A stretch of DNA of 64,000 nucleotides from assembly GCF_037042905.1 (NCBI RefSeq), contig NC_087251.1, forward strand, positions 3,598,001 to 3,662,000, written 5' to 3'. The notes under the pieces are model-generated. The model was not told the origin of the DNA, made no database searches, and saw only the letters and a program-made list of their open reading frames with translations. Below, one piece after another: positions 16,601 through 62,142 of the stretch. This DNA comes from Lytechinus pictus. Its lineage: Eukaryota. Position 1 is the first letter of the stretch. Every line of letters begins with the position of its first letter. Made by a program: the position numbers and the translations under genes.

Positions 16601-19600
16601 CAACATTATTCACTTTGGGGATTGACCAAACATGCCTCTGGAAAGAAAATGGCTTATTGAGAAAAAAATGAACCTACTTTGTAACCTCCTATATTATACG
16701 TACATATATATGCACATAACTGCATTAGCACCTATTTTAGAATAGTAAAAAAGTACATCATGATTATTCCTATTTGTACAAGTTTGTTTGATTTTGCTCT
16801 AAGTGACCTTGTGCCAAAGTGAAACTTGTACTTTTATAACATGAATTTTTCCACATTTTTTTATCGGTTCAACCAAAATTTTGAGATATTTCAAGTAACA
16901 CTATTGTAGTTGGGAAAGTACTTTTTTCTGTTAACACACCCTCAAAATGGCCTTGTAATATTTCACATACAGTTTACCTCTGCTAAGTACATCATTTGTC
17001 ATCTGAAATATGAAAAAAGAAATACTGATGATTTCCCTTTAAGTTGTGATAGAGAACTCGTGAGCAGCCACCCAGTGAGAATAGACAGGAAATGCACAGG
17101 GAACATGTGGAGACTAGAAAATGTGAAGTCTCATTAAATCATTATATTGAATATGATTTATTTCAAAGATAAGTGCAGTAGACTCATGAGTGGGAGAGAA
17201 AGTGAGAGAGATGGGGGGGGGGCTCAAAGTTTAATAGGAGGAAAGATGAAATTGCTGTATGACTGGGACGAGATTGAAAAAGAGAAACTATTTAGGATAT
17301 TTATGTAGAGAATACATGCATTTATGTCATGACAATTGTCTTTAATTGTGAATTACAATGTAGAAGCATAAAATGTATTTTGTTGTATTCTCAGCATAAA
17401 CAATGAAGACAAAGCTTTGATAAAATATGTAGTGTATATTTCATCATTTTTTGCATACTGATATGCCTAACATGCTGGAGAAATTTGAGCTTTGACTTGA
17501 AACTATAGTTTGTATTGATGTTAGACTTGTTTTTTTTTTTCGATGACATTTTGTATTTTTCTATGAATATAAAAAAGTTTGTTTTCTAATTGTATTGTAT
17601 AGTCTCTTGGAGGAAACCCTCATTCCATGGTACAGAGGACAAAATCAGCCCCTAACCACCGACGTTCATCGCAACCAGCCCCGCCCACCTACTCACCACA
17701 ACATCCACCCTTAACCAGGGTAGAAACACCTCTTCACTCCCTGGGGGAACCAGACATCACAGATAGATTAGAGATGCTGTGTAGGAGTGTGACGGAGCAT
17801 GCATTAGGTCAGGATACAGTCCCCCTTCTAATTTTAGATTTACTGTAAGGAAGGCCTCATGCATATATGTGTTAATCTCATAATGTGACTGTGTCTGTCT
17901 GGGTTTGTCTTTGCCGCAGGCTTTGACTTTATTATTTTTTTCAGTCAGTTCATTCTAAAATATGCAAAATTTTATAGGTAACCCTGTTGGATACTGTTTA
18001 TATTTTGACTAACAGTTCATTCCATCTGGATTCACCCAGTGGTTGCACCCAACCCTCTCAGTTTTTGTTATAATTTGGTACACATAAAATTCTCCATGGC
18101 CCAAGCACAAAACAAAAAAAAATTAGTCCAATCGGTCAGTCGGTTCTCGCGCTACGGCCCGCCCTTTTCTCCTTGTTTTGACAAAAATGGGTGTGACCTT
18201 CAACTTTCAATGGCCATTGCGTCGTAACGTGTTGACCAATTTTCACGAAACTGGTACTATTCAAAAGGAAATTCAGAGAGGAATCCAAAACATGCATCAA
18301 ATAATGTATTGGAGCGATTTATAAGGTCATGACCTTTGACCTTGAGTTTGACCCCCGGACAAATAATTTTTGAACTTGATTTTCGTGTATGTTAATTATT
18401 AGGTTGATATTGACAAAATATGTTAAAACCAATGATGATATTTTATTCCTTCACCTTTTAAAACTCTTCCAAAGATACCAATTATCTGATCTGAAATTTC
18501 ACTCTAGTCCCATATACTGATAACCATGTTAGTAAAGTGTTTACCAGTCCCATGATATATGATTTCTTCCAATCTTAAGTTACAGTATGCAAACAGATGA
18601 AAAGAAATTAAGCTTATCAGTTGATAAATGAAACATTAAACATTTATGCTTATGAATACATGTAGGTACCTGTTTAGGCATTTTGATATTGGACGAATAT
18701 ATAAAAACTAAAAAACTGCTGGGAACTGCAATATCCTGCTTTCTAGTCAGCTGTACTCCCCCAAAGTGAAAACACCCTTGAGATCCTTGAAGCATCAGCA
18801 TTGGATATGTTCTTTATAATGATGATGCTAGAGATGGATGATCAATTGGACAGATAATATTGTATCTAGCTATCCAGCAGGTATCCTTTTCACTGCCTCC
18901 CCATTGAAAAAAGACAGTATCTAAATATTGCACAAGTTGAGATATTAAGCATTTTTTGTTTTTCCAAAGCTGCTCAAAACTATTTTATTTCTTAGTATTT
19001 TTTTATCATCAAATTGTTGAGTATATATGTTCCTATTTAAGGCTCCCAAAACAAATATCTTGTTTCTTTTTTTTTATAGATATTGAAGAGATGTACCGTA
19101 GATAGGCCTACTCTGGGAAAGTCAAAGCGAATGCTTGGTTTCTCCATGGAAAAACGCAGTACATGTATCTACAGATGGACCAGAATTCCATTCAGTTTTA
19201 TTATCACTTGCTTCATTACCATGAAATAATGTGTCATTGTGTATTTCAAGGGGAAAATAATACCTTAGATACACAGAGGGCCCCCTGATAACATTGAGTT
19301 TAATTATCATGTTCTTCATCTGTGGGTACTGCATTTTTCCATGGGAAACTGAGTATTTGCTTTTCTACATTTACACCAATATCTCAAAACATAACAACAC
19401 AATTTATATGGGGGGTTTTGGCCTGAAAAAGGCATTCTACATTTTGATGAAAAAGGAATAGAGAAATAAAATAGTATGGAGCGACTACATGTAGTAAAAA
19501 AAAAAAATGCTTAATATCTTATCTTGTGCAAAATGTAGAAACTGCATTTTGCCGATTACTTGAAAGTTGCTTTTCAGAAGCAATTAGGAAAACTGGATGT

Positions 19601-22600
19601 GTCTTGTGAAAAAAAGTGGCTTACTGACTACTTTCTGAAAAAATAAAAATTGAAAAAAAAAAGTCAGACACTGCGTTCTTCCATAGGGGTGCAGTGTAAA
19701 GATGGATAAATGTACCTGCTGGATAGTTAGAAACAATATTATCTCTCCAGTCGATCATCCATCTCTAACATCATCAAGAATGTATGATGCTTCAAGGATC
19801 TGAAGGATGTATCCACTTTGGGGGAGTACAGCTTACTAGAAAGCAGGATATTGCAGTTTTCTAATAATGAGTTGATATACACTACTCAAAAAAAGTTAAG
19901 GACCACTTTTTAAAACGTACATAAAGATTTTATACAAGGTGTTTTATTTCTGGAAATACCTCAGTACAACTGTCCTAAATGTCCTTAAACACGCTGTAAT
20001 CAATTTCACGCATGGGTGGTTTCAGTTGTTGCACAATGTCTCTCGCATCACTGCACATCCTGAAAAGTGGGCCCCGAGGGGTATCAGCTACCGACATGAA
20101 GTGGTAAAAACGAATGTCTGAGTGTCTTTCAGGCAGTTCAGTAACGAGTGTAACGAGTGTGACCACCTCCTGCAGCAATAACGGCTTCACAGCGCTGTCT
20201 CATGGAGCTGATGAGGCGATTGATGTCTCTGACGTCCAGTGCATCCCATGCAGCCTCCAGAGCCACACCCAGCTGCTGCAGTCCAAGTGGATGGGCTTCG
20301 AGCTGCTCGAGACTCCTCCCCATCATGTCCCAGACGTGCTCTATCGGGTTTAAGTCCGGGGACCTCGCTGGCCACTCCATACGCTCAATCCCCTGGCCCT
20401 CAAGGAACTCGGTCACCACCCTAGCTCGGTGGGCACGGGCATTGTCATCCATGAAAATGATGTTTTGTCCCACATTTTCTGCAAATGGCACCACTATAGG
20501 TTCAAGGACCTCATCCCTGTACCTCACTCCTGTCATTGCTCCCCCTGGGACCACGTAGAGACGAGTACGGTTGGCGTAGGTGATGCCTCCCCACACCATG
20601 ACGCTGCCTCCCCCATAACGGTCATGTTCTGCAATACAGGGGTCTGCAAATCTCTCTCCTGGTTGCCTCCAGACTCTCGAACGTCCATCATTGTGGTCAA
20701 GGGAAAATCTGCTCTCATCTGTGAACAGAACTCTACGCCATTGCTGTCTGGTCCATCTGACATGCTCCCGGGCCCAGTTGAGACGAATTCTTCTGTGAGC
20801 AGGGGTGAGTGGGACACACTGAGCTGGCCGTCTGGCATGCATATTGGCTCTGTGAAGTCGGTTACGGATTGTTTGAGTGGAAACAATCACTCCAGTTGCT
20901 GCAGCGAAGTCATTGTTGAGGCGGCGTGCACTGTGAAAGCGGTTGCGGAGGCTGAGATTCGTCAAGTAGCGATCATCTCTAGGGGTTGTCGAAACTGGTC
21001 GGCCACTGCGGGGTCTCTCGGAGTATAGCCCTGTCTCTCGGTGTCTTTGATTTGCTCTGCTAATGACACTGTGTGACACGCCCATCATTCTGGCTACTCT
21101 TCGCTGACTGAGGCCAGCTCCAGCATCCCTAGGGCTCTGGCTACATCTGTTTCACCCGAATATGGCTGTCTTGAATCTCCTCAAACACCCTGTAACAATT
21201 TCACACATGGGTGGTTTCAGTTGTTGCATGATGTCTCTCGCATTATTGCATATCCTGAAAAGTGGGCCCATTGTGAAGTGGTACAAATGTGGATTCAAAT
21301 GCATTTTCTGTCTTTAGTCTCTACAATCAACAAATTGCTGACAACAGCAATGCCAAGATACAGCTGTCCAGAATGCCATCAAACACAATGACATCAATTT
21401 CACACATGCAGTTCTTTCATGATGTCTCTGGCATCATTGCAGTGGGCCATAAGACAAGTGTCTTCCAAAGCATTTTCCGTCTTAAGTCTGTACAATCAAC
21501 AACTTGCCTACAACAGCAATGCCAAGACACCACCTAAGTGAAACAGATGTAGCCAGAGCCCTAGGGATGCTGGAAGCTGGCCTCAGTCAGCGAAGAGTAG
21601 CCAGAATGATGGGCGTGTCACACAGTGTCATTAGCAGAGCAAATCAAAGACACCGAGAGACAGGGCTATACTCCGAGAGACCCCGCAGTGGCCGACCAGT
21701 TTCGACAACCCCTAGAGATGATCGCTACTTGACGAATCTCAGCCTCCGCAACCGCTTTCACAGTGCACGCCGCCTCAACAATGACTTCGCTGCAGCAACT
21801 GGAGTGATTGTTTCCACTCAAACAATCCGTAACCGACTTCACAGAGCCAATATGCATGCCAGACGGCCAGCTCAGTGTGTCCCACTCACCCCTGCTCACA
21901 GAAGAATTCGTCTCAACTGGGCCCGGGAGCATGTCAGATGGACCAGACAGCAATGGCGTAGAGTTCTGTTCACAGATGAGAGCAGATTTTCCCTTGACCA
22001 CAATGATGGACGTTCGAGAGTCTGGAGGCGACCAGGAGAGAGATTTGCAGACCCCTGTATTGCAGAACATGACCGTTATGGGGGAGGCAGCGTCATGGTG
22101 TGGGGAGGCATCACCTACGCCAACCGTACTCGTCTCTACGTGGTCCCAGGGGGAGCAATGACAGGAGTGAGGTACAGGGATGAGGTCCTTGAACCTATAG
22201 TGGTGCCATTTGCAGAAAATGTGGGACAAAACATCATTTTCATGGATGACAATGCCCGTGCCCACCGAGCTAGGGTGGTGACCGAGTTCCTTGAGGGCCA
22301 GGGGATTGAGCGTATGGAGTGGCCAGCGAGGTCCCCGGACTTAAACCCGATAGAGCACGTCTGGGACATGATGGGGAGGAGTCTCGAGCAGCTCGAAGCC
22401 CATCCACTTGGACTGCAGCAGCTGGGTGTGGCTCTGGAGGCTGCATGGGATGCACTGGACGTCAGAGACATCAATCGCCTCATCAGCTCCATGAGACAGC
22501 GCTGTGAAGCCGTTATTGCTGCAGGAGGTGGTCACACTCGTTACACTCGTTACTGAACTGCCTGAAAGACACTCAGACATTCGTTTTTACCACTTCATGT

Positions 22601-24299
22601 CGGTAGCTGATACCCCTCGGGGCCCACTTTTCAGGATGTGCAGTGATGCGAGAGACATTGTGCAACAACTGAAACCACCCATGCGTGAAATTGATTACAG
22701 CGTGTTTAAGGACATTTAGGACAGTTGTACTGAGGTATTTCCAGAAATAAAACACCTTGTATAAAATCTTTATGTACGTTTTAAAAAGTGGTCCTTAACT
22801 TTTTTTGAGTAGTGTATATTGCCCAACATCAAAATGCCAAAACAGATACCTATTCATGAGCATAAATGTTCAATGTTTCATTTGTTAACCGATGAGCTTA
22901 ATTTCTTAACATCTGTTTGCATACTGTAACTTAAGATTGGAAGAAATCATGTATCATTGGACTGGTAAACACTTTACTAACATGAATATCAGTATTTGGG
23001 ACTAAAGTGAAATTTCAGATCAGATAATTGGTATTTTTGGAAGAGTTTTAAAAGGTGAAGGAATAAAATATCATCATTGGTTTTAACATATTTTGTCAAT
23101 ATCATACTAATAATTAACATACACGAAAATCAAGTTAAAAAATTATTTGTCCGGGGGTCAAACTCAAGGTCAAAGTAAAGGTCAAAGGTCATGACCTTAT
23201 AAATTGCCCCAATACATTATTTGATGCTTGTTTTGGATTCCTCTCTGATTTTCCTTATGAATGGTACCAGTTTCGTGAAAATTGGTCAACAAGTTACGAC
23301 GCAATGGCCATTGAAAGTTGAAGGTCATGCCCATTTTTGTCAAAACAAGGAGAAAAGGGCAGGCCGTAGCGCGAGAACCGATGGACCGATTGGACTAATT
23401 TTTTTGTTTTGTGCTTGGGCCATGGGGAATTTTATGTGTACCAAATTACAACAAATTCTGAGAGGGTCGGTGCAAAATTGCACATTCATTGGGTGAATTG
23501 GCATGGAATGACCCTAACATAGAATGCTACTATTTTTGGCATATTCCAATCAACTATCATTAAATATGTCTGTTTTAATACTGTGTAAATATTATTCAGT
23601 TTCTAATTATATATTGCTTGAAATGTTCCTCATTGAGTAGTACCTGTTGATATAAAACAATTTATTTCTTTGAGATGAAGAAATGTGTTTTAGAGAAATT
23701 CTTGGACCTTTTTAAAACAAAATGAATAAATACATATTCTTGTGTGATTCAGAGAAATGATAAAATTAAAAAAATTTGTATATTTTCACAATGTGAAACT
23801 GATGCATATTTCATTTAATTCATTATATATGTATTTATATTTTATTTAAAATATGTATGTTGTGAAAAGGTATGATTGCCTCAATATTCAGTCTTTACTT
23901 TTCAAGATACTGATATTTTCCAAATCCAATTCCCTCTTTTTCAGAAGAAACTGTACCACTTGGAGAAGAAATCGATGTCTGAAAAAGTATAGATGAATAT
24001 CAATGATTTAGCATTTGGGGTGATTTGTTCATGTTTATTGATAATAAGTTCATGCTCTTTGGGACTAAATAAAGACTGCTTCATATCCGCCACTAAAAGG
24101 TTAAGGGAAATTGAATAAATCATCATCAGAGAATAAGAGGCATAATGTTCTTGTGATCACTTGGCTCTCTGAAAGCATTTACATGGATGTGCAACATTCA
24201 TCAATTCCATGTTATTTCATTGTCATTTTTCATTCTTTCACATTCTTGATCTTTTGTACAGATGAAGCAGATCACAATGGAGAAATATCAAGACATTGA
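4067..24299 (+). CDS. SAMD4: Smaug homolog (SAMD4A/B family; SAM + PHAT RNA-binding translational repressor), 5'-partial. join(4067-4630,5260-5319,6487-6596,7136-7222,8233-8488,12927-13128,14778-14982,17603-17807,24262-24299)
   Basis: All introns are GT-AG and the frame is continuous (1727 nt, phase-1 start). Motifs match SAMD4/Smaug: [104 protein letters not shown]. The first coding exon was not found in the window. Confidence 0.95.
4657..4802. mobile_element. Small GC-rich palindromic MITE-like element with internal subrepeats
   Basis: CACCTTCCCGCACAAAGGCCGTT is inverted against AACGGCCTTTGTGCAGGAAAGCG; two forward and two reverse subunits. Confidence 0.7.
5260..5319 (+). CDS. SAMD4: Smaug exon ([12 protein letters not shown])
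   Basis: tttcag|AAG...AAAG|gtgagc; 60 bp, in frame. Confidence 0.9.
6487..6596 (+). CDS. SAMD4: Smaug exon, SAM domain first half
   Basis: [41 protein letters not shown] bounded. Confidence 0.97.
6625..6836. repeat. Degenerate (ATC/GAT)n microsatellite
   Basis: Runs of GAT and CAT triplets. Confidence 0.85.
7136..7222 (+). CDS. SAMD4: Smaug exon, SAM domain second half
   Basis: [33 protein letters not shown] bounded. Confidence 0.97.
8233..8488 (+). CDS. SAMD4: Smaug exon (PHAT region start)
   Basis: DIMSTG...[13 protein letters not shown]; ctacag| ... |gtaagt. Confidence 0.93.
9989..10194. mobile_element. Degenerate MITE with internal telomere-like TAACCC units
   Basis: Imperfect inverted ends (GGTTCCATGACATCTGTTCTGGCGACAATT / AATTATCACAGGAGCAAAGGTTGTGTCACC); internal CTAACCCTAACCCT. 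Confidence 0.5.
10415..10697. mobile_element. MITE, imperfect TIRs
   Basis: AACCCATATTCTAAAGTTGGGTTTAA is inverted against TTAAATCCGAATTTAGAATACAGGTC. Confidence 0.55.
12927..13128 (+). CDS. SAMD4: Smaug exon (PHAT region)
   Basis: [46 protein letters not shown] bounded. Confidence 0.95.
14430..14700 (+). repeat. Dispersed non-autonomous DNA-transposon fragment (same family as 46833-47035)
   Basis: Both sites share GGTCAAGTCCACC...TTTGAAT.AATAG...AAAATCA.ACAA...CTGAAAATTT. Confidence 0.6.
14778..14982 (+). CDS. SAMD4: Smaug exon (low-complexity S/G/P/Q region)
   Basis: ttacag|G TGG AGT...CAG|gtgagt; phases match both neighbours. Confidence 0.85.
17603..17807 (+). CDS. SAMD4: Smaug exon (conserved C-terminal motif)
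   Basis: VQRTKSAP...[18 protein letters not shown]. Confidence 0.92.
20138..21155 (-). pseudogene. Inverted, 5'-truncated, frameshifted copy of the Tc1 transposase
   Basis: Matches the + copy except loss of the first ~6 codons, a 1-bp deletion near 21120 and one R->Q change. A 316-aa ORF from an internal Met remains. Confidence 0.9.
21519..22556 (+). CDS. Tc1 transposase, DD34E, 345 aa, apparently intact
   Basis: N-terminal HTH, RSGRP linker, [38 protein letters not shown]; 34 residues between D and E. Confidence 0.97.
   Translation: MPRHHLSETDVARALGMLEAGLSQRRVARMMGVSHSVISRANQRHRETGLYSERPRSGRPVSTTPRDDRYLTNLSLRNRFHSARRLNNDFAAATGVIVSTQTIRNRLHRANMHARRPAQCVPLTPAHRRIRLNWAREHVRWTRQQWRRVLFTDESRFSLDHNDGRSRVWRRPGERFADPCIAEHDRYGGGSVMVWGGITYANRTRLYVVPGGAMTGVRYRDEVLEPIVVPFAENVGQNIIFMDDNARAHRARVVTEFLEGQGIERMEWPARSPDLNPIEHVWDMMGRSLEQLEAHPLGLQQLGVALEAAWDALDVRDINRLISSMRQRCEAVIAAGGGHTRYTRY
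24262..24299 (+). CDS. SAMD4: Probable terminal Smaug coding exon ([12 protein letters not shown])
   Basis: Pyrimidine tract + tacag acceptor; phase matches GCA TTA G|gtcagg. Vertebrate SAMD4 also has a short tail after EHAL. Confidence 0.7.
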
Positions 24300-44980: not shown

Positions 44981-45185
44981 TAATTTCATAAACTTATAAT
45001 CTTAGGTTAAGATTTTGATGTTGATTCCCCCAACATGGTCTAAGTTCATTGACCCTAAATGACCTTTGACCTTGGTCATGTGACCTGAAACTCAGGCAGG
45101 ATATACTTGATTAACCTTATGTCCAAGTTTCATGAACTAGGTCCATATACTTTCTAAGGACATTTTTAATGAAGAGGGAATCTTA

Positions 45186-45655
45186 GGTAACAGTCAATTT
45201 TGCTAGGTTTATTTATTTAATCTGTACTCTTACATTTGGCTTTCCATACTTTATTGTTTACATTCAACTTGTTTATTTCCATTCCAACTCATCTCATCCT
45301 TCTTTCCATCCTCACAATCCACATACATTGTCATGATCTCATCTTTCATTCCATCTCCACAATACATCTCACATAGCAACACAGGTTCATTGCATTTCAT
45401 TCTTTTATTCAGTTTCCCCTCAGTCATGCTTCCTGGTTTTCCACTCCACATGGTCTTCTTGTTTAATTCTCATTAGTGCTGATCTGGACTTCATCGTGTT
45501 AAGTTCTAATTTATTCTGTGTTCACCCTATCTTCAGTTTAATGATTTTAGTTTAATTAAATTAAGGAGAGCTTTGGAGATTGAATTTGCAGGAGAGCATA
45601 GGAGACTGAAGTGCAAGAGTTTATGATTTTGAAGTGTACAAACGGTCATGTTACA
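45186..45655 (+). mobile_element. LTR (~470 bp) of an LTR retrotransposon
   Basis: (T>G)GTAACA ... TGTTACA termini, followed 2 nt later by a tRNA-Leu primer-binding site. Confidence 0.8.
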
Positions 45656-45657
45656 AC

Positions 45658-45688
45658 TGGTGGCAGCGGTGGGATTCGAACCCACACC
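45658..45688 (+). other. Extended primer-binding site: reverse complement of the tRNA-Leu 3' end including CCA
   Basis: TGGTGGCAGCGGTGGGATTCGAACCCACACC is the reverse complement of GG(C>T)GTGGGTTCGAATCCCACCGCTGCCA-CCA. Confidence 0.9.
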
Positions 45689-46780
45689 AGTCAAATGTAA
45701 GAGTACAGATTAAATAAATAAACCTAGCAAAATTGACTGTTACAATAACTAATTTTATCTTCTAATTTTCTTTTAATTTCATTGGCTAGCCTATGGACCT
45801 GAGTTTGATTATTCAGGTTTATTTTATAATAAGGTTTTCACGAATGAACAAAATTATAATATCATTTACATACGGGGCCGCAGAATGATTTTGAAACAGG
45901 GGGTGCATAAAATCACAATCATTTATTATGTCATGTTCATTTTCACTTTTGGGAGGGATCCATGCAGTCGCGCCCCTTGTATTTTATTTTGATCAGTGTG
46001 TCAAAGTAATTTTGATTAGGTGCGTATGACACATTAATTACACCCACCCCTTAAAAAGCGAATAAAAAATCGATTCTAACTTAAAGTGAAGGGAATTAAA
46101 AAGCAAATAGTTATTGGAAAAAGTAATTCTTTACATTTTTTTATCAATATTTCATTTTCGGTGCCATATAGGCCTGCAGATTTTGGGAATATATCATGTT
46201 CCCATGAGAAAAAAAAATCAACACGAACACTCTGAATTCCATGGATTTAAAATAAATCCAGATCGGCTGTGAACCAGCCAAATTTTTGTTATATTTTTAA
46301 TCTGTAGGATTAACTTTTAAATCTCAAATGATTTAAATTCAAATCTTTTAACTTTTATATGTTTAAATCCTATATGGTTTAAATCTTAATCTAATATTCT
46401 GCTGGTCACTATTCACAGCCGAACCTCGGAATTTAGAATGTACACTGGTGTAACGCCAAGAACAGTAATGAGATACCCTTCAGGCCTCTACACAAAAAAA
46501 ATTCATCACTTGCCCTATCGGGCAAGTGATAAAAAAATTTGCTTGCCCGATAGAAAAAACTGCTTGCCCGATTAAAAAAAAAAAAATCTTTTGCTCTTAA
46601 TTATTCTTTTCTGTCCTGGCTGAACTTGATTTACTGGCGCTGCCCTTTGCATTTCTTTTTCTTGACTCTTGTTCAAGTTGTTCTGGCCTTCATTCTTGGA
46701 AAGAAAGAAGAAAACAGGAAGGAAGGAAGAAAGGGAAAGAAAGTATAAGGGAAAAGAATAAGGACAAAATGAAATAAATA

Positions 46781-54871: not shown

Positions 54872-56770
54872 TTATGTAGATGTGATAGAGAATTTCTAAA
54901 TATATATTTTTTTTTAATGAGAAAGATACATGGGTGATTTCAAGTTTGCTGTTGAACTTTTGGTGTGGCGTCTTACAAGTTTTACATCATCATCACAGCA
55001 CCAAAATTACAATCAAATTGATTCATAGATTCATCTCACTTGATGTTGAGCTATTAATGTGATTTGGATTATTTTTGTAAACTCACATTAGGTTTTGGAG
55101 GAAGGAAGAACTAAATTGTGCTACGAACACCAACGCCAAAGTTAGAATCACCCAGTGTATTTTATTTTTTTTAATGAATTGCGAGAAGAGCTGAGAGGTG
55201 GAAAATATAAGAGAAAGAGTTGTGTGTGTGGTTTAATAATGAGAGTGCGATATGGCAAAGAGAGAGCTGAAGAGAGATTAAAAGAATAGATAATGTATTA
55301 CAATGATAATGTGAAGGGGCATAGGGTGCACAAGAGAGTGGACAGAGCCAATTGACAATTTACCCACAAGGAGAAACCATAAAGGGCCATTTTATTCTTT
55401 ATTTATTTTGAGAGGAGGCGGGGATAAATGAGGGAGAAACAATTTATAAAGAGTGGGGAAGAGGAATAAGATGAATAGAGATGACTTTTAAAGACAAAAA
55501 TTAGGCCAATCAGAGTGTGTGTGTGGGGGGGGGGGGGGCAAAGCCGATCAGTGCGCCCCCCCCCAATTTGACAGGCTCAATTAAAAATTGTAATGTAAAG
55601 TGTGTCCCCCTTCTGAAAGTGAAGACCCCCCTTTTTTTGCTTTTCAAATTTTTCCTTGAGAAAATGTGCCCGGCCCCTTTGGAAAAATCCTAGATCCGCC
55701 CTGCCTGAAACTGATGAAGTTTGGTAATGACATGTCACTTATCTGTGCTCTTAAAAAGAGTGAACACAAAGAAATTAGATTACCCCCCCCCCCTGCAAAA
55801 AAGAATTAAATGATCATTATCAATAATTGGAAAGGCTTAGCGTAAAAAACACACTATTAATTAATTACAGAAAATAAATAGGTTCTAATTAAATCCAATC
55901 CTATTTTCTAAAGAAATTTTGGATTCAGAATTTGTTTTTACTATATCATTAATAACATACACTGCGATGTGAAACATGCCTCTAGTGATTCTGATCTGGA
56001 GAACAGCAGAGAAAGGTCGTATTTTTTTTAAATGAAAGAACCAAATTACAAAACCAGTAAGTGAAACGTTCAAACTGAAATACATTGTTATTATTTATAT
56101 TGGCGTATTGTTATTGTGAAATAAACTAGTTCGTAAATATCTTCCCCTTTCATTTACACCAATGTTAAAAAGAAACAGGCTGATTCACCCCCCCCCCCCC
56201 CCCCCCCCCCCCCATCTCCAGGTTAAACAAGATTAAGAAAAGTGTCAGGCTGCGGTGCTAGTGTACGTTGTTGCATGTAAACTGCATTCTATGCACGGAA
56301 GTTGAAAAACGATGCATGCATGATGACTCATTGTAGTGAAGAACGCTGATTGGTCAATAGTAGTAAGAAGTAGATTAATCACGTGATGAATATATTAAAT
56401 TTCATGAATAATTAACGCAAAGTTGACCTCGCTCAATGCGCATGCGTGACGCTGATCTCCACTTTCTGCTTCGTCATATAAAGAGTCTATTGGGATGTGT
56501 GGAGCAGCGAACTGATGAATTATTCATGTATATGCAAATGGGGGCTTAGGATTTGCCCAAATGTCGCCAACAAAATGGCGGAGCTTCGGGGGCCTGTTTT
56601 ACACCATGGCGAAGGCATTTTCCGCAAAAATAGCCACAAAGCGACTAGTGAAGAGTCTACACACGTCGCTGGTTGCAGCTTGCGACACAGGCGAGCCCCG
56701 CATGCAATCTGCACAGTTACTGATAGAGCCTGGAGCATGAAGCTATCATAGAGTTCCTCGGCACTTCATG

Positions 56771-59910
<3,140 letters not shown>

Positions 59911-62142
59911 ATATAACTATCAAAATACAATCACATGCAGTCAAAGACTGAAATAAGTGAATGTTTACATACAAATAGAATCATAACAAAATATAAAGTA
60001 AACATTATAAATAAATATCAAATACAATACAAATTCATACAGATAAAAAAGAAATGTATCATAAATAAATACAAAAGGCCAAAAGTAAAGTGTCACCAAA
60101 GAAGAAAAATGCGGAATGAAAGATTAAGAAGAAAGAGGTGAGAGAAGGGAAAGAAATTGGGATAAGACAAAGAGAAGGGAAAGCAAGAGGTGGAATTTGA
60201 AAGAGAATAGGAGGCAACCTTCAGAAGAAAAAAAACTAATTATGCCTTACAAGACATTTAACAATGGTAACAAGTAAATAAAGTAGTAATTGAATCGAAT
60301 CGAGCACAAAAAAGGGAAAGTAGAGCTGAGGAAATAGACTCCCGAAGGAAGTCGAAGCAGTGTTGATATTGCACATTAGTAGATTAACAGATGGATAGAG
60401 AGAAATAAAAGAGAGACAGATGGATAGATAGACAATTTGAGAGATAGATGTTAGATGGATAGATAGATAGACAGATAGATAGGTAGATAGAGAATGAGAG
60501 AGACAGAGTAGATAGACAAATTAACAGATAGATATATCATGTAGTACCATATATTGATTTATAACATAGATAGTGCATGGATAGACAGATATGATAGATA
60601 TAAGGATAGATATAAAATGAAAAAAAGTAATTATGTGTTTTATTTTTCAATATTTTAGCTATTATTCGTTTTCATTCATATAAACGATCATGTGCGATAA
60701 AGTAAAAAAAATCATGAAGCCAACGTATATAGTTCAGCGGAACAACCAAAATACAGAGACTGAAGATTTTGGTCTATAAGCTCAGCTGCATTTGCACGTA
60801 TGTTCTGCGGATATCTTCGGTGCGGACTTTATCGCGCCCAGCTGATTATGTAAACAAACGTAGACGTAGACTCTTCACTAGTCGCTTTGTGGCTATTTTT
60901 CCGGAAAATGCCTTCGCCAGGGTGTAAAACGGAAACGCGCGGCCCGCGCGCTGGAAGAGCAGTCTTATGATTGAAGTAGCTACCCTGGGTAAATAAAACG
61001 TTATTATTATTCTCCATTTTTTAGGTCTATGCACGATAACTACATCTCTGAACAGCCTCTTCCTCATGTGTTTTTTTCTCTCTCTCTCTTGATCATAAAA
61101 TGAACAAAGATGTAGAACTTTCTCAAACTTATCAATAAGTATACACCCCCTCCCCTTCCTCGGCAGCTAGCTTCCACTGGCACACACGCCCTCACATACA
61201 CGTTCATCACACATCTCTATTATTCAACCTCAATATTTCAGCTCTTGAACAATACTTCAAATAGAAGCATCATTTAAATTTTCATACAATTTCATCTTGT
61301 CTGAATATTCCTTCTACGTATAATTAAATTTCCCACAAAAGACATGTGCAAATAGTGCAATATTTCATTCTTGGATGTACATTAGACACGATTGGGTATG
61401 AGGATTTGGGTTGATTTTTTATTTTTTTTTTATTTGAGTATCAAGATAACTGGTAAGAAATTACATACAGTTTGTATACTACGGAACACAAATAATGAGA
61501 AAAACACGATGATAAAATATAACATAGTTGAAAATTATTTTTTATTATACCCGAAGTTTAATTAAAATTGTATCCTTCAATAGAAATAAAGTTACAAATG
61601 TGAAAAAAAATAACTGAATTTGAAACCAAACAAACTTGCTTAAAATACAAAACTCTATAGTTTTTAATAATTTCATTTTAACGTACCTATTTATGTAAAA
61701 CAAAACAATTTCAAACCATATTGGGAGCATATGCCCCTGAATCCTAAAAGATATATGAATACAATCGTTTCCTAAATTGTTTTTATTTACCAAACAATTT
61801 TTCTATGCAAAAAGAAACAAACGAAGTATAATTCCCTGTTGTACTAAACTAACTCGTGGACAACCTTCCTTAAAATGTTACAGTAGTACTGGGTCTAAAT
61901 ATCAGCCAAAGAATTTTAAACTTTTCAATATTAGCCAATATGAATCAACGTTAATACTTATATGCTTAATTTGCACTTTTGTCAAATTTTAAACGTCGAA
62001 GTCACCTTATAGAAAACTAAAATTATCGATGAACAGTCATAATCATTATAGGCCAAGTACATGATCAAAATATAGTAGGTTACGTATGATAAAAAAATAC
62101 ATTTACTATGATAGAGCGTTTATTTATTAAAAAACATGTTAC

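Follow-up and report, generated by a model that had tools for sequence, protein, structure and literature searches.

A 588-bp insertion in the genome of Lytechinus pictus joins an LTR, an over-long copy of a primer tRNA-Leu and an inverted copy of the LTR's own beginning, and we propose, with a probability of roughly two in three, that it arose once, when a dead-end intermediate of a Ty3/Gypsy LTR retrotransposon was rescued. The insertion lies in a 64,000-nt stretch of contig NC_087251.1 (positions 3,598,001 to 3,662,000), the whole of which we call the window. Taken alone, this copy is an inert scar: it has neither a 3′ R nor a downstream PPT and is not a replicating element.

Anatomy of the insertion

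Read along the forward strand, the locus begins in host DNA with a ~160-bp dispersed-repeat unit (44998-45156; repeat families D9/D17/D18) that ends at the junction; other units of this repeat run on differently past the point matching the 45156 join. The next 29 nt (45157-45185, forward strand) are the 3′ end of the internal region of the retrotransposon family, including the PPT. They are identical to locus L031 at 29/29 positions, meet the host repeat at a 2-nt microhomology, and form a tract that also stands 5′ of the LTR in 7 other loci of 30. Since these PPT-bearing nucleotides precede it, the window LTR is in a 3′-LTR context and the left inverted arm lies within the insertion; no further internal sequence of the family was found within the window. 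The LTR itself (45186-45655, forward strand) measures 470 bp and ends TGTTACA, as the first-pass annotation of this DNA had reported. That annotation remarked on neither the 29-nt PPT context nor the ~181 bp of U3 that are missing when the LTR is aligned to its family. A natural solo LTR (L010) is 662 bp long, the window's internal gap is joined at 45475-45476, and among 31 aligned LTRs it is present in this one only. The first base of the window LTR is G, where the family has T.

A 2-nt spacer (45656-45657, forward strand), identical in all eight family junctions with a tRNA copy, leads from the LTR end into a 32-nt reverse copy of the 3′ end of a mature tRNA-Leu(AAG/TAG) with its CCA (45658-45689, forward strand). 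Compared with the host tRNA-Leu 3′ end plus CCA, 31/32 nt match, the sole mismatch (45686) being a CpG transition, and the copy extends 14 nt beyond the m1A58 stop with the correct base opposite A58. An Rfam tmRNA match at this place (16 bits vs a gathering score of 47) was rejected as merely reflecting the tRNA end. On the reverse strand, an inverted copy of LTR nt 1-56 follows (45689-45744), stops exactly at the CA att end and differs from 45186-45241 at 2/56 positions (blastn E 1e-21 within the window). The tRNA-Leu copy with its non-genomic CCA and the inverted LTR start had both been recognised at the outset, and both are upheld here. Beyond a blunt join at CA lies the downstream part of a high-copy host repeat (45745-45948, forward strand), recognised from fetched copies of that repeat.

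The junction of tRNA copy and inverted LTR was found once, both in a genome search in which 40 of 145 candidates were scored and in a listing of LTR-end/tRNA junctions. Half of the words of the locus were found in none of 24 public read runs, the best share (0.35) being about what its multi-copy parts would give. Elsewhere in the window, a transposase ORF, presumably Tc1-like by its motifs, is present twice in divergent orientation at 19875-22819 (337 and 356 aa between stops); the two copies form an arm pair of 1245 bp, reported as 100% complementary and nested in older inverted repeats at 18049-23470. At 56596-60930, 65-bp inverted repeats (97%) surround 4.2 kb of GATA-rich satellite organised in a higher-order repeat of ~1 kb, and a 31-bp tandem repeat with an internal palindrome lies at 70-658.

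The parent LTR family

A search of the 812-Mb assembly for the family raised 145 candidates, of which 40 were scored, yielding 123 matches. The family does occur as paired LTRs, as the first-pass annotation presupposed: in L040 two direct LTRs differ at 3 of 634 columns and are flanked by the TSD GTAG. Exact 4-bp TSDs were seen in 14 solo LTR rows, two of which are duplicates of one site, and family copies carry a PBS after the 5′ LTR and a PPT before the 3′ LTR. An ORF in L031 matches rve (E 4e-17), Integrase_H2C2 (E 1e-15) and Ty3 Gag-Pol (E 2e-28), with foamy-virus integrase scoring slightly higher. Ahead of the integrase stands a putative RNase H tail, and the motifs labelled GPY are likewise putative, neither having come out as a search match. 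With its integrase placed after this putative RNase H tail, the parent family is, on sequence grounds, a decayed Ty3/Gypsy-type LTR retrotransposon. No intact element was found among the family copies recovered, no stretch coding for reverse transcriptase was recognised among the ORFs of the fetched copies, and 5′-truncated copies are frequent.

The window LTR lies 2.4-2.9% from its nearest relatives (family median 3.2%). The LTR tree is mostly unresolved, with 4/28 inner branches starred, and is too weak to show a clade of loci with long tRNA copies. After its gap, the window LTR resumes at LTR nt 483, at a motif that we take to be initiator-like and downstream of several presumed CCAAT boxes, and LTR pieces in L036 and L031 start at nt 479 and nt 490. 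Judged at the DNA level, from the motif and these three breakpoints, R would start at about LTR nt 479-490.

Native PBS and over-long tRNA copies

ARAGORN called tRNA-Leu genes in 10/20 loci fetched around tRNA-like matches (5 AAG, 5 TAG). Nine of these ten genes lack an encoded CCA, and the AAG and TAG isoacceptors are identical over the copied stretch, such that the primer is tRNA-Leu(AAG/TAG) and no finer. A tRNA copy follows the LTR end in eight family junctions, a ninth match belonging to another family, with lengths of 18, 18, 18, 18, 32 (window), 42, 43 and 45 nt; L040 was counted as 18 nt, its 19th base coming from the landing site. Half of the eight overshoot 18 nt, mostly to 42-47 nt, and 7/8 jump via microhomologies of 1-7 nt to non-native sequence, landing in inverted U3 (window, L032, L033 and L038), in pol (L031 and L036) or in the 3′ internal region (L040).

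Native 5′ sequence is kept in just three family copies, and a simple layout of LTR, spacer and 14-nt PBS was seen in 0/3. In L037 and L041 the native sequence comes after a 14-nt tRNA match with one mismatch, itself following a few extra bases, and in L039, the longest family copy, after 42 nt of tRNA, rejoined inside the PBS. Based on L037, L041 and the sister families described below, the native PBS appears to be ~14 nt (13-15), short and imperfect, in which case even 18-nt tRNA copies would be aberrant. The first-pass premise that the m1A58 stop holds a PBS to at most 18 nt therefore needs adjusting here.

For two sister families, B and C, whose LTR nature we deduce from anatomy and not from paired LTRs or pol, junctions were listed by LTR-end patterns and all 12 and all 25 were fetched (37). 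A 13-15-nt, mostly imperfect PBS with common downstream 5′ sequence is present in 20/37, tRNA copies of at least 17 nt in 15/37, and 2/37 were unclassified, these proportions being biased upward since the families were picked for holding long copies. None of the 15 long copies runs into native sequence, and apart from two nearby duplicate pairs they lead to different places. In these two families long tRNA copies are thus, as expected for Ty3-type dead-end strong-stop DNA, not normal internal sequence. Genome-wide there are 473 exact 18-nt tRNA matches and 11 exact 26-nt matches, one of the latter probably a gene, and overshoot is therefore rare overall.

Three further sets of matches stand apart. 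L059, a full tRNA with CCA after an LTR-like end, was considered as a complete read-through and is probably an ordinary gene, with its modified positions unchanged and a T run after the tRNA. L066 and L070 have a 39-nt match and downstream sequence in common that could be an inherited long PBS; just these two copies exist. When metagenomes were scanned for the native 5′ junction, 21 matches came up, none of them LTR- or 5′-like beyond the pattern, and these were taken as chance.

The question raised by the first-pass annotation, whether a long match could be normal internal sequence, is answered in two ways: the sister families give 0/15, whereas L039 in the window's own family has its 42 nt in front of native 5′ sequence. 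The main alternative to our reading, which we hold to be unlikely, builds on this copy. An ancestral 42-47-nt read-through, realigned on the PBS, would have become normal in the family, and the window junction at nt 32 would be a template switch or deletion inside the inherited match; read-through would have happened once, and not in the window molecule. The extra bases between LTR end and short PBS in L037 and L041 would also suit this history, tRNA nt 43-47 repeat nt 1-5 and make realignment possible (the L077 array is built so), and all four long copies are compatible with one master. However, these four end at different points and have no derived change in common, the LTR of L039 is sister (99/94) to that of L040, which stops at 18 nt, and in the sister families 20 copies retain the short PBS and the long ones lead elsewhere.

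Source of the inverted arm and sister template-switch products

LTR nt 10 is C in both window arms and A in all 38 other rows with a base there, two of these being repeat fetches and five further rows not covering the site. Judging from this private base, the inverted arm is a copy of the window LTR or of a molecule of the same template. The fold-back junction has 1 nt of exact microhomology, with an offset 4-nt match and a substitution 2 nt away. Together with the 0/15 of the sister families, the private base supports the earlier proposal that tRNA copying went past A58 and then switched onto the element's own LTR start.

The search for other LTR-tRNA-inverted LTR copies that the first-pass annotation had called for did yield L032, L033 and L038, in all of which the copy stops at 18 nt of tRNA and continues on inverted U3 from nt 187; the window junction itself is single and not replicating. 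L032 and L038, both in the LTR tree, are not grouped there (L032 groups with L034, 95/86), and the structure of L033 is unlike either. Rather than a family, the nt-187 junctions appear to be the same error made repeatedly at a hot spot of microhomology. L033 (G000:C11:21928150-21928414) measures 266 bp, is bounded left and right by LTR att ends and has an exact 4-bp TSD, ACAG. It opens with an inverted U5 end, folds back through the LTR end plus 18 nt of tRNA (an inverted PBS) and then jumps onto inverted U3. It is a double template-switch product inserted by integrase, and two-ended products do therefore integrate. The TSD of L032 is equivocal: an ATTG followed by TG is placed exactly as LTR nt 1 would require, but its first 63 nt are not significantly LTR-like, 72/1000 shuffles scoring as high; at the arm end of L038, its right end, no TSD was found.

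Other aberrant products of the window's family (L034, L035, L036 and L031) show internal inversions and large deletions, L031 with a 22-bp inverted duplication at its jump into pol, and internal jumps are accompanied by exact TSDs in L034, L036 and L040. In family B, L056/L160 (G000:C9:11010000-11010300) comprises an LTR end, a 44-nt tRNA copy and 246 bp of inverted LTR, truncated on both sides. As a separate observation, L157 (G000:C2:762200-764800) and L154 hold family C LTR pieces, direct and inverted, with two 17-nt tRNA copies.

Host junctions and integration

The right-flank repeat gave at least 40 scored matches, and 6/6 fetched copies have the same upstream sequence, ~800 nt of which are without a match in the window. 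The first four bases of the right flank, ATAA, fit an xTAx target preference, TA standing in the middle of 13/17 family TSDs vs a background of 8.7% (counted without L017, L021, L032 and L045). The blunt CA join and the xTAx flank make the right end look like the work of integrase. On the left, the insertion begins 29 nt before the LTR and has no att end; for this copy the earlier picture of a TIR-bounded element with two integrase-compatible ends is not supported, since only the right end is att-like. The left half of the target is absent from the window, so the missing TSD, which the first-pass annotation took to weaken the integrase step, says nothing either way. Whereas concerted insertion gives an att end at both host junctions and a 4-bp TSD, the window copy has an att end at one junction and no TSD that can be scored. 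Its 5′ end is not at LTR nt 1 with the PPT removed, as in strong-stop DNA; because 29 nt of internal sequence precede the LTR, part of the product must stem from a minus strand or from priming further upstream.

Origin of the window copy

In the history that we favour, minus-strand strong-stop DNA would have landed in U3 and not in R, dropping ~181 bp. A PPT-primed plus strand then very probably copied the LTR and went on past A58 over at least 32 nt of tRNA-Leu, the primer tRNA probably being without m1A58. With the native PBS pairing over only ~14 nt, this over-long 3′ end would have been unfit for the normal second transfer. It would instead have primed at nt 56 of a plus-strand U3 of the same sequence, a template to which the two arms attest, and have been extended, presumably by reverse transcriptase, until synthesis ran off at LTR nt 1 and rebuilt the CA end. 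Integrase would then have joined the rebuilt CA end into the host repeat; on the other side, host repair at the 2-nt microhomology with loss of host DNA and a later trimming deletion are equally possible.

We regard it as improbable that reverse transcriptase made only the over-long strong-stop DNA and that the arm was added in the nucleus, by a host polymerase that extended the free 3′ end along the integrated U3 end into the flank after one-ended integration. Host polymerases do extend a free viral end on either viral DNA strand, with rearranged host DNA, according to PMC5041404, and the left half of the target is missing here as such an event would leave it. The jump of the same kind in L033 has, however, a clean TSD on both sides, which argues that it was finished before concerted integration, and the internal jumps with exact TSDs in L034, L036 and L040 point the same way. 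Very improbable is an origin from two independent convergent insertions, or from a tandem array and a second insertion, brought together by a later deletion and then made alike by gene conversion. The frequent 5′ truncation in the family and the missing host DNA on the left would be in keeping with it, but conversion would be needed for the private base, and it would leave unexplained why a tRNA copy exceeding the native PBS follows an LTR with a PPT in front of it, and why three loci have one identical junction. The strongest form of the first-pass reading, a TIR-bounded mini-element replicating as a family, has next to no chance of being right despite the two att ends and TSD of L033 and the candidate TSD of L032 in register with LTR nt 1: the window junction occurs once, the nt-187 junction three times with L033 built differently and L032/L038 ungrouped in the tree, a PPT or second R follows the PBS in none, and the first 63 nt of L032 are not significantly LTR-like. 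A MITE or other TIR DNA transposon does not fit a single copy whose left arm is internal to the insertion, and auto-integration was rejected since the internal junction is not at the att end.

Stop positions and modification of the primer tRNA

With duplicate pairs counted once, the window family and families B and C provide ten long LTR-linked events, which end at 32, 34, 42, 43, 43, 44, 45, 45, 47 and ~53 nt. Counted from the anticodon position, G37 is nt 48 from the tRNA 3′ end, and 7/10 of these events end at most 6 nt before it (nt 42-47; p about 4e-6 under a crude uniform null). The correct base stands opposite A58 in 10/10 long LTR-linked copies vs 17/26 other CCA-bearing copies, the corresponding counts of events with a wrong base (0/10 vs 9/26; Fisher p = 0.039) coming from a small sample in which some of the 26 may themselves be LTR-linked. 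This comparison is without tRNA genes, duplicates and L079, and tandem arrays were counted once. At non-CpG control sites a wrong base is found in 5/442 cases, vs the 9/26 at A58 in the other CCA-bearing events. The simplest reading is that the LTR-linked overshoot used primers without m1A58. Among non-LTR copies reading past G37, 4/5 have a wrong base at G37 and 4/5 an inosine-type change at position 34, one of them judged by eye. We assume that tRNA-Leu(AAG/TAG) carries m1G37. In general, this modification causes misincorporation signatures and arrest of reverse transcriptase, as described in PMC8062790.

Two side observations concern other tRNA-Leu fragments in the assembly. CCA-bearing fragments with no evident LTR and with wrong bases at A58, G37 and position 34 include L055, L072, L073, L074, L084, L091 and others among L049-L093; an identical 5-nt motif precedes L055, L073, L074 and L091, which suggests capture by the reverse transcriptase of another retroelement. 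Tandem arrays whose unit is a tRNA-Leu 3′ fragment are present at L077 (G000:C2:26785770-26786570), L075, L076, L080, L082 and L085. The L077 unit, 42 bp long, has the spacing of two 5-nt repeats of the tRNA, of which the second ends just before G37.

We tentatively advance a wider reading, about which we are more doubtful than confident: these insertions may preserve, in an animal germ line, a readable record of how the primer tRNA was modified. On this view tRNA-Leu without m1A58 would sometimes have primed Gypsy families whose PBS is short as in Ty3, with stops just before G37, and the dead-end DNAs would have been rescued by jumps onto LTR ends, some as two-ended mini-elements inserted with a TSD (L033).

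Relation to known systems

Among retroviral DNAs cloned in earlier studies are some that carry additional tRNA sequence and have deletions starting at the PBS. Genomic LTR-tRNA-inverted-LTR fold-back fossils were not described in the literature that we searched, in which coverage of older and subscription papers is thin. Each step proposed here is known from retroviruses and yeast, and the related copies record the errors unusually clearly.

In Ty3, tRNA-bearing first plus-strand strong-stop DNA is a dead end and the PBS is not inherited from the tRNA (PMC5371799). The dead-end strong-stop DNA of Ty3 and Ty1 resembles the present case in a short PBS that is apparently RNA-inherited and in the absence of a normal second transfer. 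Unlike those systems, the element here is an animal Gypsy primed by tRNA-Leu, with stops at 18 or 42-47 nt rather than 12 nt, and a jump rescued the window product, which became fixed in a chromosome. In retroviruses m1A58 sets the 18-nt stop and overshoot products fail (PMC8599865), with minor HIV stops at positions 55, 54 and 37 (PMC13191261). The over-extended products of HIV-1 and MLV are similar in their 18-nt m1A58 stop, their read-through and a later stop at position 37; however, the long products there are unable to complete synthesis, whereas here they survive as germ-line insertions, and stops near positions 54-55 do not occur among the ten long LTR-linked events (PMC8599865, PMC13191261).

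For retroviruses it is documented that one end can be integrated while the host repairs the other, and such aberrant integrations resemble the window copy in having a precise att junction on one side, a truncated end with short homology on the other, and rearranged host DNA; the event here is a natural germ-line one, and its precise end is a rebuilt inverted U3 copy (PMC5041404). TRIMs, including Helenus/TRIMp3, are likewise short, non-coding and LTR-derived with tRNA-derived sequence, but they have two direct LTRs around a PBS and PPT and replicate, whereas the window repeats are inverted and single-copy, and the tRNA-derived piece of Helenus serves as a promoter within the LTR (PMC10886601). 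Inversion circles formed by auto-integration also place inverted element sequence beside an LTR and are made in the particle; there the att end is the internal junction, while here the internal junction lies between tRNA and LTR nt 56 and the att end faces the host (PMC7197481).

Based on these comparisons, the window feature is best filed as a reverse-transcription by-product of a known class, with its value in the pattern across the family and genome more than in this copy. Stops of reverse transcriptase on primer tRNA have so far been studied mainly in vitro or in cell culture, with a few retroviruses and yeast Ty elements. If the wider reading is true, many natural read-outs of where synthesis stopped and of what became of dead-end strong-stop DNA in germ lines could be counted in genome assemblies, with no need for an active element. 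The same reading would also suggest that the Ty3 pattern of a short, RNA-inherited PBS applies to some animal Gypsy families, in which a perfect PBS match of 18 nt or longer could mark aberrant, not intact, copies.
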